Source: Candidatus Latescibacterota bacterium (lineage in GTDB: Bacteria; Latescibacterota; CBDEFO01). Taken from it: a stretch of 64,000 nt of DNA. The stretch lies in NCBI GenBank assembly GCA_965248755.1, contig OZ252149.1, forward strand, positions 2,432,001 to 2,496,000. Reading direction: 5' to 3'. Positions 33,001 through 42,000 of this stretch are shown one piece after another (the stretch's first letter is position 1; each line of letters starts with the position of its first letter). The position numbers were made by a program.

Positions 33001-36000
33001 CTCCGAAGGCCAAGTAGATGCGTTCAAGGAAATCAGGGAAAACAGCCGAGAGGAAGGAGAGGCTCTCTTTGAGGAACTGAAGACATACGGAGCGTACAGA
33101 GAAGGAATCAGAACAGCCAGCAGGAATTACACCAGCAGGAAAACGAAGAGATATTAGCCCTCCTTGACGATGAGCAAAAGGCCAAATGGGAGGAATTTCA
33201 AACGAAAATGCGGGAAAGGCGGCAGGATAATATAGGAAGACACAATTAAGCACGCTACATTTTTCAAAGTAATTGAAGATCGGGGGGTCTAACGTCCGTC
33301 ATGTCGAATTCACAGACGTTACACCCCTTTTTTTCTCTTTCCCCAAGAAAGTTAAGTCTCTCCTGACAAAACGTATAATGTTGTGTCACTACTTTCTTTA
33401 AAGGAGGTCAAGCTATGTATAGCTTCTCAAGAATCTCTCTGGCGAACGCAGCTATTCTGATCGCGCTTTTTGGTGCTTCCCCTTCTTCTGCTAAACAGCC
33501 GGTCATCAGTGCCCGTCCCTTAGGTATGGGAGAGACCTTCCTGGCGATAGCTGACGATGGCAACGCCCTGTTCTGGAATCCAGCAGGATTGCCCTCGTTG
33601 GGGCACCATGAGATTGTCAGCGGCTACACTGATCTCTTCGGAATCGGTATAAAGAATAACATCATAGGATACGTCTTCCCTATGGCGAACAACTATGCCC
33701 TTGGGTTTGACTGGGCACATTTAAGCTTTGAGGATACTGAATTAGGTTATAAGAAAGATAGCTTCAAGTTATCCTACGGGCATAGAGTCTGGCAGGAACT
33801 TTCCTTTGGCTCTGCTTTAAGATATATCACCACAGATGTGATTCTGGACTCATACTCGTTGGGGAAAGCTTCTGGATGGGGATTGGATATGAGTTTTTTG
33901 TATGCCCCTGTCAAGTGGCTGAAATTGGGGATGGTGGTTCAGGATGTGACAGATACCAACGTGGAGTATGATGACGGGAGTACGGAGGTAATTGATCCCA
34001 GATCGTTCCAGTTCGGGACGGCCTATCGGCCGATAGACGATCTGACGGTGGCCCTGGATGTGGACGATCAACTCCATTTCGGAGGGGAATACTGGCTCAG
34101 CAACAACATGCTGGGACTGAGAGGTGGTCTACAGAAGGACCTGGATACCTCGGAGCCGATGACGTATTCGGGCGGAGCGAGCATCCGCTATAAGCTGTTC
34201 CAGTTCGATTACGCCTATGTAATACCGCCGACTCTGCCCTCCAGCCATCGCTTCTCCCTGTCTCTCTCCTTCAACCTGTATCCTTCGATGGTGCGGATCA
34301 CGGAGACAGAGATCAATAACCTGTTCCCGGCGTTCCACAAGCGCTATGGCGTGCATCCACTGGGGAATGTGAAATTGGTCAACAGGGACGACAAACCCTA
34401 TCAGACTATGGTAAGCTTCTATATCCCCAAGCTGATGGATGCCCCTACAGAACAGCAGGTTATCATCCGGCCGAAGGAGACGAAGGAGGTTGGGCTTAAA
34501 GGGGTCTTTTCCAGTTCCATCACCGATTTGACCGAGGATATACTGACGCAGGCGGAAGTCAGGGTCTCCTATACGACAGAGCGCAAGACGAGGTCGGACA
34601 GGGAGTCGGCCAGTTTCTATGTCTACAGTCGCAATGCGACTACCTGGGACGATCTGGGGAAGGCGGCGGCCTTTATCACATCCAATGACCCGATCATAGC
34701 TGGATTCGCCCGGCCCACGTTGGTCTCGTTCGAGGAGGAGATCAAGAACCTGGGGCGTGGCAGTAGGAATCTGATGAGGGCGATGGTGCTCTTCGATGCG
34801 GTGAACGAGTACGGGGTGCGCTACATCTCCGATTCCAACAATCCCTACTCCCGAATATCTGCGGACAAATCTGCAGTGGACAACATTCAGTATCCTGTCG
34901 AGGTGTTGAAGAAGAAGTCGGGGGACTGCGACGATCTCACCGTGCTCTATTGCGCTCTTTTGGAGAACGTCGGTATTCCCACGGCGTTAGTGGATGCCCC
35001 TGGACATATCTATATGATGTTCGACAGCGGTGTTCCTATCCAAAAGGCCTACAGTCTCCCTATAGGCGAGAAACTGTATGTAGTTCGGGACGGCAATATT
35101 TGGATCCCTGTGGAGATCACCTTGTTCGGGAAATCGTTTATCGAGGCCTGGCGGTCCGGGGCAGGTGAATCCGCAAGTCTCTTGGAGGAGGGCAGACTCA
35201 GGGTCGTTGACACTTCGGATGCATGGCAGGAGTATGAACCTTCCCCTCCTAAATTTGAGGTGGAGATTTCCGTACCAACCAAGGAGCATATAACGGGAGT
35301 TTTCTCCTCAGATCGGTCGGGCTTGAAGGAGATGATGAATGCCTTTATAGAGCGCACCCACCTTGGGCCTCTGGGGGAGAGTCCAGAAGATTTTGATCTG
35401 CACTTTAACCTTGCCCGGATCTACACAGCGATCCGTGAGTACGAGCGTTCGATCTCCGAATATCAACGGCTCTTAAAGTCAGGTGCGGATCCTGCTCGTA
35501 TATATAACAATATAGGGAGACCCTACTTTTTGAAAGGAGAAGTAAGAGAGGCAGCTCACAGCTTCAAGCAGGCTATGGACTTGGATCCGACCGATGAGGG
35601 GGTCAAAAACAACTTCGAGTTGGCAATGTCATTTTTGGGGGAGGAAGAGCGGATAGCCTTTGCAAGAGAGATCGGCGCATCCTTGCCTGAGGGGCTCAAG
35701 GCAGCGGACTTTGAGGTGGATGAGGAAAGCATCTACTGGAGGGAGTAGGGATCGCTGATTAATGTTGATAAAAGGAGCAAAAGATGCACATGGACATTTG
35801 TCGGATAACGACGCTAACGGCGGTCATCGCCGTTGTCATCTTCGCCACAACTGCAAGTGCGGCAGAGTGGGAAAGCTTCACCACCGAAGATGGCCTGGCG
35901 GACAACACGGTCACATCCATCTTAGAGGACAGTGAAGGCAACTTGTGGTTTGGAACTTTAGGCGGTGTGAGCCGCTATGATGGGACGTGGACAACTTACA

Positions 36001-39000: not shown

Positions 39001-42000
39001 GGGATGAGGTCACAGGGAGTGTGCTGATGATAAATAGTTAAGTGCCCACGAAGTAAGTTTGCGTCACTTGTAATTATAGGAACTAAAACTGAAGTGCTAA
39101 AATGTTGAGACACCTGAAGCGATCTTTCACCTACGAGGGAAGTATATGAAAACTTCGAGTATCACCTCTGTGTCCGTCTGGTTCTTTTAGCAGACACCGT
39201 TGACAACGTTGACGCAATGAAAGGAAAAGCGTTAGGCGGTGCTTTGTACTGGGATAGACTCAGGAAGAAGACTGATTCTTGTATGACCTGTTGCTACTCG
39301 TTTCATTTTCAGCCTTGACTCATCCCACAAAAGTACGCTTTGGGACATCAGCCCGGGGTGCGAAATTCGTTCTAGAAACTTACTGCCCCTAAAGTTGGTA
39401 TAGCGTAAATGATCAAATAGAAGAAGCCCGCCATTTCTGACGGGCTGTGTGTCCAATCTTGTACGGTGCACAAAAAGGTCTGGAAATCTACCGCATCAAC
39501 ACAAGCTTCCTTATCTTCACAAATTCTTCCGATCCATCCGTCTCCAACCGATACACATAGATTCCGCTGGCAAGACTCTTTCCACTATCATCTGTTCCAT
39601 CCCAGACTGTAGAGTGCCTTCCCGCATCCATCTGCTCATGTACCAATGTTGCAACCTTCTGTCCTATCATATTATAGATGGATACATCAACGTGGCTTTG
39701 AGCGGGAAGGTCGTAATGGATCACCGTCTCCGGGTTGAAGGGGTTAGGGAAGTTTTGATGCAATGCATAGGTGTCAGGAACATCGGAAACGCCATCAGAT
39801 TGGGGAATAACTACACTAAAAAGACCTTCGTTCAATTGAGCAGAGACTAGATCAATCCCCGATAGATCCACTCGGGGATCAATCTCACCAATAGTCTCAA
39901 TCTGCGAATCTACAGGCTCAAATATAATCTCACCAATCCTACCGCTGCCTTCAACTGATTCTACACCAGCAAACGATAGCCTTAATCTGCCATCTTGAGC
40001 ATTGTTGGCGAAAAGATAATCAGAGGTCAAGTGGGATGTTCTGGCATCTACGGCTTTGAGTTTGGCCGGATCAAAAGATAGTTCAAGTTGACCCGACAGG
40101 ACACCGTCCATTTCATCTATGAGGACAGGAACGACAAAGCGCCCATCAGGCAAAGCCTCTACATCACCTAAACTGATAATCCTTTTGGCAAGTACAGTCT
40201 TAGGGATGCCTCCTGTCTCAGCAGGAAACTGAGTTAATTGCCCAACAACGAACCTGAGTATCAAAGAGCCGTCAAAGGGACTTATAGTTCCGTCTCCACT
40301 GACATCAGCTGCTATAGTGTCAGAAATTACAAAGAGACCTACTGTGGATCTAAGCACCAAAGCAGCATCAAATGCCATCACCCTTCCGTTGTGGCTAACA
40401 TCTCCTACCAATCCAGAAACCTGCACAGATCCGCCCTGTAAAGCTGCCGCGGGATCGCCCTCGTTGAAGAAGAATCTCTCAAAAACCAATGCTGTAGAAT
40501 CGCCGATGACTGCCGATTCGGAGACTGCAAATCTGATAAAGATAAGGTCTCCCGATCCTGATAATATGTCGACTCCCATAGTCGCCATTGCAATCTTGAC
40601 GGTGTCTATAAGTGTTCCCATGCCCGTTACGACCGTGTCAGCTATCGCCCAACCTTCGCTCAGTGTCCCTCCCAACGCTACTTCTATTGCCTCTATTACA
40701 TCTGAATCGTAAGTGATATTCATTTGGACTGAGATAATTTCAAGCCCTGTTACGTCATCTTTGATAAGGACAGGAACTGAAACCGTATCGCCGATAGAGA
40801 TAGATGTGTCCGGAAGACTAACTGAGACTGTAACTACTTGAGAAGAAACACGCGCATTCAAAGCGACCAGCAGGATCAGAGCAGTAGAGAAAATTATATG
40901 CCTCATTTTGAGTCCTCCTTTGGTCTATAAAATACTGACTATGACTATACTACTGAAGCCCGGTTGAATTTATGTCACTTCCCCATCTGTGGGCTGAAGA
41001 TGGCTTTATGATGTCGAAATGAGCCTATCTCATCAAGATCAGCTTTCTCGTTTTCACGAATCCATCCGCCTCTATCCGATACAGATACACGCCGCTGGCA
41101 AGACTTCTTTGGTTGTTATCTTTGCCATCCCAGACTATAGAGTGTCTGCCTGCATCCATCTCCTTATCCATCAATATCGCTACCCTCTGTCCTATCATAT
41201 TATAGACAGATATGTCAACGTGGCTTCGGAGCAGAAGGTCGTAATGGATCACCGTCTCAGGATTAAACGGATTGGGATAGTTCTGATACAATGAATAGCT
41301 GTCAGGGATATCGGAGATCGCTTCAAATTGGGGAATAACAACACTGAAGAGCCCTTCGTTCAATTGAGCGGAGAGTAGAGCAATCTCACTGATAGCCTCA
41401 ATTTCCGAATCTACCGGCTCAAATATAATCTCTGCGATCCTACCGCTGCCATGAACCGATTCTACCCCGGCAAACGATAGCTTCAATCTGCCATTTTGAG
41501 CATTATGGGCGAAAAGATAATCAGAGGTCAAGTCAGATGTTCTGGCATCTACGGCTTTGAGTTTGGTCGGATCAAAAGACAGTTCAAGCTGACCTGACAA
41601 TACACCGTCCATTTCGTCTATGAGAACAGCGACAGTAAAGCGTCCATCAGGCAAAGCCTTTATGTTACCTAAACTGATAATCCTTTCGGCAAGTACGACC
41701 TTAGGAGTACCAGCAGGAAATACGCTTATTTTCCCAATAACAAACCTGAGTATCAACGACGCATCAAAGGCACTTATAGTGCTATCTCCACTGACATCCG
41801 CTGCAACAGTGTCAGAGATTGCAAAGAGACCAACTGCGGATTTAAGAACCAAAGCAGCATCAAATGCCGTTACCTCTCCATTGCGGCTGACATCTCCTAC
41901 TAACCCAGTAACTCGCACAGACCCATCCGCTGTAATTGCCGCTGGATCGCCTTCGTTGAAGAAGAATCTCTCAAAGACCAATGCTGTAGAATCACCGATG

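Follow-up and report, generated by a model that had tools for sequence, protein, structure and literature searches.

We describe a gene, found in a 64,000-nucleotide stretch of the genome of a Candidatus Latescibacterota bacterium (the window), whose 777-residue product joins a barrel of the PorV family to an Ig-like domain, a transglutaminase-fold domain, TPRs and a short C-terminal tail. This fusion is confirmed. The barrel seems to serve specifically the proteins encoded beside it, as their carrier or surface anchor, and in relatives the locus is linked to a CHASE2 sensor gene. Our preferred reading, which we judge to stand about evenly between right and wrong, is that a dedicated type IX carrier forms the base of an outside-in envelope relay: a calcium-dependent protease resembling LapG would act on the tail, or on a small partner, and would control a CHASE2 cyclase. 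To our knowledge, T9SS carriers are plain barrels, and what we know of T9SS comes almost entirely from Bacteroidota.

The open reading frame is preceded by a GGAGG ribosome site and its start resembles a signal peptide (Table 1). The domain order given in a preliminary description of this DNA is borne out: the NCBIfam model PorV_fam (NF033709) matches residues 32-287 with 98.2 and 103 bits (cut-off, 90), Pfam Transglut_core (PF01841) matches residues 482-526 with 25.2 bits (cut-off, 23), TPR profiles match at residues 653-727, and the Ig-like part aligns with an Ig domain of 8u01 (VIA-align; Z 12.8, rmsd 2.4, 102 residues aligned). An AlphaFold2 model has a mean pLDDT of 92.9, and its best Foldseek matches are those named earlier, 8gl6_F (E 6e-11) and 6h3i_F (E 1e-10), followed by FadL. 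Because the modelled barrel has 14 strands, the last of which ends on the short-turn side, the Ig-like domain, enzyme and TPRs would face the periplasm; loop analysis finds the loops on the presumed outer side to be conserved and of fixed length. A paralogue in the same genome (G000:C1:2524185-2526518) is 91% identical, and among 120 listed of 222 homologues, 93 combine barrel and enzyme and the remaining 27 carry the enzyme but no PorV-type barrel. Promoter and terminator scans at the locus gave chance-level results only, and no RNA dataset containing the window was listed. Two DNA runs of one sample, which may be the assembly's own source, cover it without indels.

Table 1. Features of the fusion gene and of the adjoining surface protein gene (positions in the window)
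Feature	Position	Strand	Basis
Barrel-Ig-transglutaminase-fold-TPR-tail fusion gene, P0001, 777 aa	33415..35748	+	ORF; profile matches, AlphaFold2 model
Predicted signal peptide, residues 1-26	33415..33492	+	Read from sequence; model helix 6-19, low confidence
PorV/PorQ-family barrel, 14 strands, N-terminal plug	33493..34284	+	NF033709, model strands, Foldseek, loop analysis
Ig-like beta-sandwich, residues 291-410, probably periplasmic	34285..34644	+	Structural alignment
Transglutaminase-fold cysteine enzyme, residues 411-612	34645..35250	+	Pfam profile, fold matches, conservation
Codons of putative triad	C505 34927-34929, H531 35005-35007, E567 35113-35115	+	Alignment
Long helix and TPR repeats, residues 613-745	35251..35649	+	TPR profile matches, model
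C-terminal tail with K762-A763-A764 and W775, proposed to supply in cis the motif of the small partner	35650..35745	+	Motif comparison
Cognate surface protein, 1064 aa: signal peptide, Reg_prop propellers, Y_Y_Y/Ig/ZU5-like stalk, C-terminal domain	35784..38978	+	Profile matches
Reg_prop propeller head, residues about 27-615	35862..37628	+	Profile matches, paralogue comparison
Cognate C-terminal domain, CQPRxFSP class	38676..38975	+	Profile and paralogue comparison

The genome encodes SprA and a separate PorU sortase; GldK fell below its cut-off and GldM was not found in the genome, a search for which the GldM control gave no signal either. PorV-like barrels, of which ten had been counted, give 15 matches to NF033709, 12 of them near full length and 7 above the cut-off. 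The fusion barrel scores 42.2 bits on the PorV equivalog NF033710 (cut-off, 250), and the best PorV of the genome (G000:C1:1021982, 174 bits) adjoins porU. No match to the PorP/SprF models PF11751 and TIGR03519 was found for the fusion barrel at E values up to 1; the genome's two PF11751 matches are other genes.

Each fusion gene lies directly ahead of propeller genes, as had been noted: one, starting 35 nt after the fusion gene, in the window, and three behind the paralogue. The window's protein contains Reg_prop repeats and ends in a FlgD/CTD-like domain. Among the four paralogous surface proteins the propeller head is the most variable part (61-63% identity), and the CTD of the window's protein is 82% identical to that of each of the other three. 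The label of T9SS cargo is presumptive for this protein, whose C-terminal end reaches 22.7 bits against TIGR04183, the model for type A (cut-off, 23); profile searches of it for a type B CTD found neither TIGR04131 nor CHU_C, the latter matching weakly, below cut-off, in two relatives. A type A CTD is encoded within 39488-40906. A CTD model built from 12 barrel-neighbour proteins of other genomes, in other phyla, places exactly the four genes behind the two barrels first in this genome (122-128 bits; next, 58.9 bits; 99 rows), which suggests a carrier dedicated to them. A leave-group-out test gave 79.6-127 bits versus at most 60. The cognate CTD was present at 20/24 barrel loci and 0/50 other loci of a first set on which the CTD and CHASE2 models were partly trained, and at 8 of the 12 barrel loci outside the training set. 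The held-out set gave 8/15 barrel loci, 0/36 non-barrel loci and 0/26 PorV-family barrels lacking the enzyme. The cargo bodies beside fusion barrels are mutually unrelated (Reg_prop, FG-GAP, Big_5). According to the part of the source available, PorV binds CTDs with its extracellular loops (PMC10994853). Given the gene pairing and the type B precedent, the propeller protein may be exported through SprA, handed to the barrel by its special CTD and kept on the cell surface.

The putative triad, C505, H531 and E567, is conserved as first reported: in 83/83, 82/83 and 81/83 sequences, respectively, of one alignment (A1), and with all three residues kept in 66/66 modules from many phyla in another (A2). 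They are also kept in 141-147 of 148 newly listed top representatives of the module, only 8 of which have a PorV-type barrel. C505 is flanked by D504 and D506, both invariant in A2 and at the positions of D316 and E318 of DvhG, acids which the accessible part of PMC13090378 assigns to a calcium site beside the cysteine. Structural neighbours of the enzyme fold are 3kd4 (Z 10.5), LapG (Z 9.3, rmsd 3.3, 137 residues aligned) and PNGase (Z 8.9); the LapG family model NF045674 gives the fusion protein 12.1 bits (cut-off, 320), sequence searches with the Ig-enzyme profile found no solved structural relative, and atlas look-alikes of the enzyme are transglutaminase-like clusters without names. By predicted fold and Cys-His-acid triad the domain is assigned to the transglutaminase-like superfamily, and its active site looks intact. 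A non-catalytic scaffold, in which the fold would do no more than bind the tail, the partner or CHASE2, the cysteine being structural or redox sensing, would suit the Glu at the third triad position in place of Asp and the lack of a close solved relative, but we consider it highly improbable given how strictly cysteine, histidine and acid are kept across the 66 modules and the 148 representatives.

The module with its triad also stands behind unrelated N-terminal parts, and cognate cargo was found near none of these loci (0/50 and 0/36). Propeller and enzyme are fused directly in P0065, P0089, P0092, P0096, P0098 and P0100, and such fusions stand at 14 of 43 non-barrel loci; the pairing of barrel and CTD may replace the peptide bond that joins them in these relatives. 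These results bear on the original suggestion that the shuttle also acts on what it carries, by processing or cross-linking it, perhaps while the cargo is still in the periplasm. The dedicated carrier is supported by the cognate CTD; processing has become very unlikely. The strict adjacency of fusion gene and cargo, the intact triad, the passage of cargo through the periplasm and the best Foldseek match of the Ig-enzyme part, transglutaminase 2 (E 7e-6, but with an rmsd of about 16), would all fit it. However, in the model the enzyme and the CTD site lie on opposite sides of the membrane, the module is conserved without cargo or barrel, the cargo bodies share no relationship, and PorU is a separate protein.

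The preliminary description missed both the CHASE2 sensor and the motif shared by tail and partner. The tail (K762-A…W775) resembles a motif seen in a small secreted partner, [K/R]-[G/A]-x(about 10)-aromatic-W, and the motif of the partner was not found elsewhere in this genome. The 58 loci of the first set comprise 32 with the tail, 15 with a partner gene, none with both and 11 with neither, and the 45 held-out loci 23, 10, 0 and 12, respectively, by a rule for this degenerate tail that was written after the first set had been seen and that has a background of 141/1893. The partner state changes only 4 times on the tree, with few independent lineages, so that a test independent of kinship could not reach significance (sign test, p 1). 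A complex prediction for the Ig-enzyme-TPR part of one relative (L025) with its small partner scored 0.20 against a mark of 0.32 and was counted neither way; a profile comparison of enzyme module and partner gave nothing, which tests little since A2 lacks the tail. As a lead only, the partner motif might be a self-cleavage strand of the FecR kind in which Ala replaces Thr. FecR, in the portion of the report available, cleaves itself at Gly181-Thr182 (PMC12036975); the FecR profile PF04773 found no match among 14 small neighbour proteins, partners included, at E values up to 1.

A CHASE2 sensor gene is carried by 17/24 barrel-type loci of the first set and lies within 8 kb of 1/50 non-barrel loci; the held-out figures are 8/15 and 1/36, with 0/26 for barrel-only controls. 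Since CHASE2 is so rarely near non-barrel forms, the module may have other partners there. The linked CHASE2 proteins differ in output (cyclase, SpoIIE, kinase, histidine kinase or CHAT). In this genome a CHASE2 adenylate/guanylate cyclase (G000:C1:591861-594602) shares 43% identity over 917 columns with the locus-linked cyclase of L025, and among 40 relatives this cyclase occurs in 7/7 fusion carriers versus 3/33 genomes without the fusion. It lies far from both barrel genes, here (1.9 Mb) and in the sister genome, and is likely the CHASE2 partner of the fusions. Two CHASE2 genes only 30 kb off (G000:C1:2497786 and 2501729) were rejected as partners: they score 55 and 51 bits, versus 357 for the cyclase, and adjoin a caspase-domain gene. 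That the two barrels and the cyclase are all damaged in the sister genome (G001) is weak evidence, since of 200 orthologues sampled in it 21 are broken.

In the relay that we favor, the barrel would carry an Ig spacer, TPRs and, between them, a cysteine protease that resembles LapG and depends on calcium, all facing the periplasm, with fold and residues read in silico. The enzyme would engage the [K/R]-[G/A] motif, in its own tail here and in the small secreted partner in other lineages, and cleavage or release of the motif may switch the inner-membrane CHASE2 receptor, here likely the cyclase at 591861-594602, as the linkage in relatives suggests. No route is evident for a signal from the bound surface protein through the plugged barrel. 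A more specific version, tentative and rather doubtful, has the surface propeller, clamped by its own barrel, control the protease, the cut motif freeing an acidic-aromatic peptide that is the CHASE2 ligand.

The same observations bear on two other arrangements. A cell-wall anchor like PorE, in which the barrel retains the surface protein and the enzyme works on peptidoglycan or on a wall-bound partner, cutting or cross-linking it, would make one chain do the work of PorP and PorE; it draws on the PorP-PorE-PG1035 complex (PMC9143113) and on operons of cargo, shuttle and PorE (PMC12618676), as far as the available text of each goes, on the probable periplasmic side of the enzyme, on the TPRs, and on one non-barrel locus (L017) that adjoins a penicillin-binding protein gene. 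Yet profile searches found no peptidoglycan-binding domain in the fusion protein, many enzyme modules have no membrane barrel, and the CHASE2 linkage with its swapped outputs and the pattern of tail and partner would be left unexplained; we regard this anchor as unlikely. Control from the inside out, as in the Lap system, is quite unlikely. Here the CHASE2 receptor or the tail tryptophan would restrain the protease until a signal let the barrel-cargo complex go free or the surface protein be shed. The LapG-like fold and the acidic residues around the cysteine agree with it, as does the conserved W at the end of the tail, LapG being held by a receptor tryptophan in the part of PMC13090378 at hand. 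However, the cargo has no visible periplasmic retention segment and its terminal CTD would sit outside, and the output domains of the CHASE2 proteins (cyclase, kinase, phosphatase) fit an inward flow of signal.

These results point to a T9SS carrier that bears an enzyme, and to a CTD class of its own from which the partner barrel can be predicted in different phyla. The family ties carrier and CTD class to CHASE2 receptors, for whose input the Sinorhizobium NsrA pathway gives the only, and indirect, evidence. The tail-carrying form should be a handy test object, with enzyme and candidate substrate in one soluble fragment (residues 291-777). If the peptide-ligand version of the relay is true, it would amount to a protease-gated, self-contained route through both membranes, would supply a first molecular input for CHASE2, whose ligands are largely unknown, and would make T9SS carriers receptors in at least six little-studied phyla.

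How does the fusion compare with known systems? It shares with PorV of F. johnsoniae (6H3I and 8GL6, chain F) the 14-stranded, FadL-like plugged barrel, a score above the NF033709 cut-off, and a genome with SprA and PorU. Unlike PorV, it has 490 extra residues on the periplasmic side, reaches 42 of 250 bits on the equivalog, does not lie beside porU, and is paired with one CTD class rather than with all type A cargo. The type B shuttles PorP/SprF (P. gingivalis PorP-PorE-PG1035; F. johnsoniae SprB-SprF) likewise have one barrel per adjoining cargo class, and their genes adjoin the cargo, usually downstream of it, in the sections available of PMC12618676. PorP-PorE also has a TPR-bearing periplasmic part on the inner face. 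However, the fusion barrel has no PorP/SprF match and its cargo no TIGR04131, and its periplasmic part, unlike PorE, is fused, putatively catalytic and without an OmpA-type wall-binding domain. The N-terminal region of the anti-phage protein ProA (NF058533) matches residues 366-534 weakly (E 2e-8), so a related Ig-plus-enzyme unit may occur there, but with 32 bits of a 1500 cut-off and in a fusion protein that is exported; as PADLOC matched 0 of 66 modules, an anti-phage role was dropped.

The NsrA pathway of Sinorhizobium meliloti offers a precedent for an outer membrane barrel genetically coupled to inner-membrane CHASE2 receptors, as seen in relatives of the fusion and unlinked in this genome; the available parts of PMC13001267 and PMC7529298 place the cyclases CyaK, CyaD1 and CyaD2 in the Clr pathway. 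In those accounts, unlike the fusion, the barrel occupies the C-terminal part of NsrA (residues 600-1200) and uses its own loops to sense a foreign protein, and neither a protease nor T9SS cargo is described; its FecR-domain periplasmic neighbor (SMc02177) has no counterpart among the 14 small neighbors. LapG/DvhG (BTLCP, MEROPS C93) is a structural match and, as proposed for the fusion, a transglutaminase-like periplasmic cysteine enzyme with an acid-Cys-acid arrangement that goes together with an inner-membrane receptor and a surface protein of large size. The fusion differs in its Cys-His-Glu rather than Cys-His-Asp triad, in falling outside the LapG family model and in its tie to a barrel; its putative cargo is of the T9SS rather than the type I kind, and its presumed receptor is a CHASE2 protein with output domains in place of a reader of c-di-GMP.

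The preliminary description of this locus, a barrel fused to a transglutaminase-fold domain and TPRs ahead of a propeller gene, is borne out by the open reading frames and family matches. The predicted protein has a signal-peptide-like N-terminus, a PorV/PorQ-family barrel (98.2 bits against a cut-off of 90), an Ig domain, a Transglut_core match (25.2 bits against 23), TPRs and a tail. The conserved set that had been proposed, Cys505, His531 and Glu567, is present in 83, 82 and 81, respectively, of 83 full-length relatives, and all three residues are kept in 66 of 66 Ig-enzyme modules; the reading of the enzyme as an inactive scaffold is, in our judgment, very improbable. 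A second copy of the fusion likewise precedes propeller genes, as had been stated, and the identity between copies is highest in the Ig (118/120) and enzyme (191/202) parts. The genome encodes both SprA and PorU, and because its best PorV match adjoins porU, both fusions are extra barrels. The earlier count of 10 PorV-like barrels, two of them fusions, gives way to 15 family matches, of which 12 are near full length and two are the fusions. Neither GldK nor GldM was found above cut-off in this genome despite the presence of SprA, PorU and PorV, and a GldM control also gave no match. At locus L003, further genes may be ExbB/ExbD-like.

Coordinates of features in the window and elsewhere in the Latescibacterota genome (G000; contig C1)
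Feature	Coordinates	Strand	Basis or content
Fusion ORF, 777 aa	window 33415-35748	+	ORF and domain matches
Cargo ORF, 1064 aa	window 35784-38978	+	starts 35 nt past the fusion ORF
Possibly an eroded small periplasmic gene	window ~32790-33253	+	upstream of fusion; signal-peptide-like start, early stop, then acidic/basic helical-looking stretch
Three tandem secreted proteins	window 39488-46274	-	ends: cohesin, dockerin, cohesin-like, plus ordinary type A CTD; NHL propellers in two of the three
Large serine recombinase, IS256 and IS1380 transposases	window 46828-53063		near the fusion; possibly a mobile island
Caspase-domain gene	window 53567		ahead of the next ORF pair
Overlapping ORFs, 657 and 1870 aa	window 54496-62065	+	overlap 56453-56469; PKD repeats of the same kind in both, followed by PD40 and FG-GAP; the pair resembles a single giant surface protein broken by a frameshift
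Second fusion copy	G000:C1:2524185		91% identity to window copy; three propeller genes directly after
CHASE2 cyclase	G000 591861-594602		357 bits
Locus L087	G000:C1:2494729-2503567		in a row: secreted caspase-domain and DUF4384 protein, 300-aa protein (weak DUF928 match), CHASE2-cNMP, CHASE2-cyclase
Locus L003	G000:C1:2734397-2742010		1072-aa TPR protein between two PorV-like barrels
FTPNGDGxND CTD clusters	G000:C1 near 237732, 1464681-1471835, 2116769-2159669, 3519528-3524691		tandem, mostly Tyr-terminated

The AlphaFold2 model of the fusion (pLDDT 92.9) has 14 strands at residues 65-286, and PorV (8gl6_F and 6h3i_F, the top Foldseek matches reported before) again ranked first, followed by FadL. 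Odd-to-even connections of the barrel are long hairpins and conserved loops of near-fixed length, even-to-odd connections are short turns that tolerate inserts, and strand 14 terminates in the model at the short-turn side. Both termini of such barrels are periplasmic. Because of this rule and the position of strand 14, the Ig domain, enzyme, TPRs and tail would lie on the periplasmic side. Passages of PMC10994853 describe CTD binding by PorV as occurring via extracellular loops, so the enzyme and the bound cargo are predicted to be on opposite faces of the membrane. This arrangement argues against a shuttle that processes its cargo.

Further evidence on processing comes from enzymes outside this barrel. 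A PorV-type barrel is absent from 27 of 120 homologues among the matches listed; in six of these the enzyme is fused behind Reg_prop and Y_Y_Y propellers, the head type of the neighboring cargo, while 19 are of spirochaete type, most with ~200 residues ahead of the Ig domain. With the E limit set at 1e-30, an Ig-enzyme profile matched 1,937 clusters, and only 8 of 148 further clusters listed from it contained such a barrel. Among 43 non-barrel loci scanned, 14 begin with a propeller (Reg_prop 3, NHL 9, WD40 2), and 6 have OMP_b-brl matches, 5 of them below cut-off. Retention of the active site in settings like these is not what one would expect of an enzyme built for processing T9SS cargo, and cargo processing is, on the whole, quite unlikely. 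One planctomycete module (L072:7449-7991) has an N-terminal FHA domain, which suggests a cytoplasmic version of the enzyme. Spirochaete loci (e.g., L020, L052, L055 and L062) carry small-barrel versions directly followed by large surface lipoprotein-like genes with LVIVD, Ig and propeller repeats, a gene order that parallels the cargo pairing without the CTD. In Poribacteria (L079-L081), both TPRs and tail are missing from the fusion. The next gene there encodes a secreted protein of 300 aa whose C-terminal part is a degenerate version of the second half of the enzyme, and after it come genes for a histidine kinase with CHASE2 and for a sigma-54 regulator.

What does stand from the earlier cargo-processing proposal is a dedicated pairing of barrel and cargo. 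Neighbors of the barrel gene in Eisenbacteria, KSB1, Marinimicrobia, Zixibacteria, Poribacteria and one spirochaete share a C-terminal domain that starts CQPRxFSP and is attached to unrelated bodies (Reg_prop, FG-GAP and Big_5). A model trained on 12 of these neighbors, none from G000, gave 122-128 bits for the four genes that follow the two fusions and 58.9 for the next (99 rows), a ranking that changes little when whole groups are left out. This cognate CTD occurs at 20 of 24 barrel loci (8/12 outside the training set) versus 0 of 50 other loci. Among 77 held-out metagenome loci, it was found at 8 of 15 barrel-enzyme loci (6/7 of those of at least 8 kb), none of 36 other enzyme loci and none of 26 enzyme-less PorV-family barrels, although 17 of these 26 loci were <8 kb. 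The pairing could derive from operon co-descent, but the swapping of cargo bodies argues for selection acting on the pair. Across the four cargo paralogues the propeller head is most variable (61-63% identity) and the CTD constant at 82%, as expected if a constant anchor carries heads that vary for sensing or adhesion. The CTD of the window cargo falls just below the type A cut-off, and the type B model did not match it; a separate class in this genome, starting FTPNGDGxND, appears closer in look to type B.

A CHASE2 receptor also appears to be part of the barrel-enzyme unit. Pfam detected CHASE2 at 13 barrel loci and at a single non-barrel locus, the output domain being a cyclase, SpoIIE, kinase, histidine kinase or CHAT. 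A profile built from these loci matched 17 of 24 barrel loci versus 1 of 50 others, and four of the 7 barrel loci missed are on broken-off contigs. The held-out counts were 8/15 for barrel-enzyme loci, 1/36 for other enzyme loci and 0/26 for enzyme-less barrels. CHASE2 is seldom near non-barrel forms of the module, which counts against unit membership. No CHASE2 gene lies beside either fusion in G000. Three are encoded in the genome, and the best-scoring, a cyclase (the other two score 55 and 51 bits), is of the linked type, with 43% identity over 917 columns to the linked cyclase of L025. The fusion is carried by 7 of 40 relatives; a cyclase match at E up to 1e-100 was found in 7/7 carriers versus 3/33 remaining relatives, kin that are not independent, and the cyclase is on the same stretch as the fusion in 5 of the 7. 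In the sister genome G001 (L100, L101 and L108), each of the two fusion genes has one early TAG, and frameshifts are present in the linked-type cyclase and in one cargo; of 200 orthologues sampled in G001, 21 are broken. Locus L087 appears to represent another CHASE2 unit, in which the pairing is with a different cysteine protease.

At many loci a small secreted partner gene lies directly 3' of the enzyme gene, encoding a helix, then [T/S]-x-V-A-[G/A]-V-R-G-A and, ~10 residues later, L-Y-[W/Y]. A search of G000 for this motif found none. The fusion's own C-terminal tail has K762-A-A, ten more residues and I-Y-W775, an ending that most relatives share and that in some (e.g., P0047) matches the partner nearly letter for letter. 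By a rule composed after inspection of the first set, 58 complete loci there had tail only (32), partner only (15), both (0) or neither (11), with 16 of 74 left out as cut or with <700 nt downstream; the same rule in 45 held-out loci (6/51 left out) gave 23, 10, 0 and 12. The background of the tail rule is 141 of 1,893 long ORFs of G000. A tree of 66 modules shows 4 changes in partner state and 7 in the tail; none of its independent pairs goes in the same direction, their number being too small for a test. We read the tail as a probable in-cis form of the partner motif, and model confidence at residues 771-777 (87) fits a docked tail end.

Structural neighbors of the enzyme include the cysteine protease LapG. 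In the Ig-enzyme model (pLDDT 94.8), residues 291-405 match Ig sandwiches, and the enzyme part matches 3kd4 (Z 10.5, rmsd 3.0, 132 aligned), LapG 4fgo (Z 9.3, rmsd 3.3, 137 aligned) and PNGase (Z 8.9); transglutaminase 2 is the top Foldseek match, yet with an rmsd near 16. D504 and D506, invariant in the 66 modules, occupy the positions of D316 and E318 of DvhG, calcium ligands around C317 in the excerpted text of PMC13090378. The same text describes LapG substrates as having a helix and, after it, a motif of small residues, which resembles the partner layout by analogy only. The fusion scored below the cut-off of the LapG family model. We give an even chance to an outside-in envelope relay, proposed from the domain order, fold, conserved active site, CTD class, CHASE2 linkage and tail/partner exclusion shown in silico; as alternatives to it, a PorE-like wall anchor is rather unlikely and a Lap-like release, running inside-out, is unlikely. 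In such a relay, SprA would export the propeller cargo, the barrel would capture it, and the periplasmic enzyme would act as a protease on the tail or partner motif, its action being coupled to the CHASE2 cyclase.

Literature searches, covering mostly non-subscription papers, on PorV/transglutaminase/type IX, CHASE2/transglutaminase (where passages of PMC8195603 concerned unrelated matters) and Latescibacterota/type IX/PorV left the fusion undescribed, though supplementary domain-architecture tables could list it; so did searches on CHASE2/DUF928 and CHASE2/FecR/outer membrane/TPR. The fusion is real, undescribed in the literature searched, and would be a variant of a known envelope-relay type. 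Its sequence places it only in the broad PorV/PorQ and transglutaminase-like groups and apparently outside the NsrA, type B and LapG families. PorP/SprF shuttles pair one barrel with one cargo (PMC12618676 and PMC9143113), a logic shared with the fusion, but the fusion barrel is outside that family. PMC12152298 offers a precedent in PorA-PorY, where a T9SS cargo CTD acts on a sensor kinase, and the Sinorhizobium pathway includes a FecR-domain gene (an excerpt of PMC5498481). By analogy, the fusion system may work most like NsrA, which acts with the CHASE2 cyclases CyaK, CyaD1 and CyaD2 (excerpts of PMC13001267 and PMC7529298), and it would add to that scheme cargo pairing of the type B sort and an enzyme resembling LapG.
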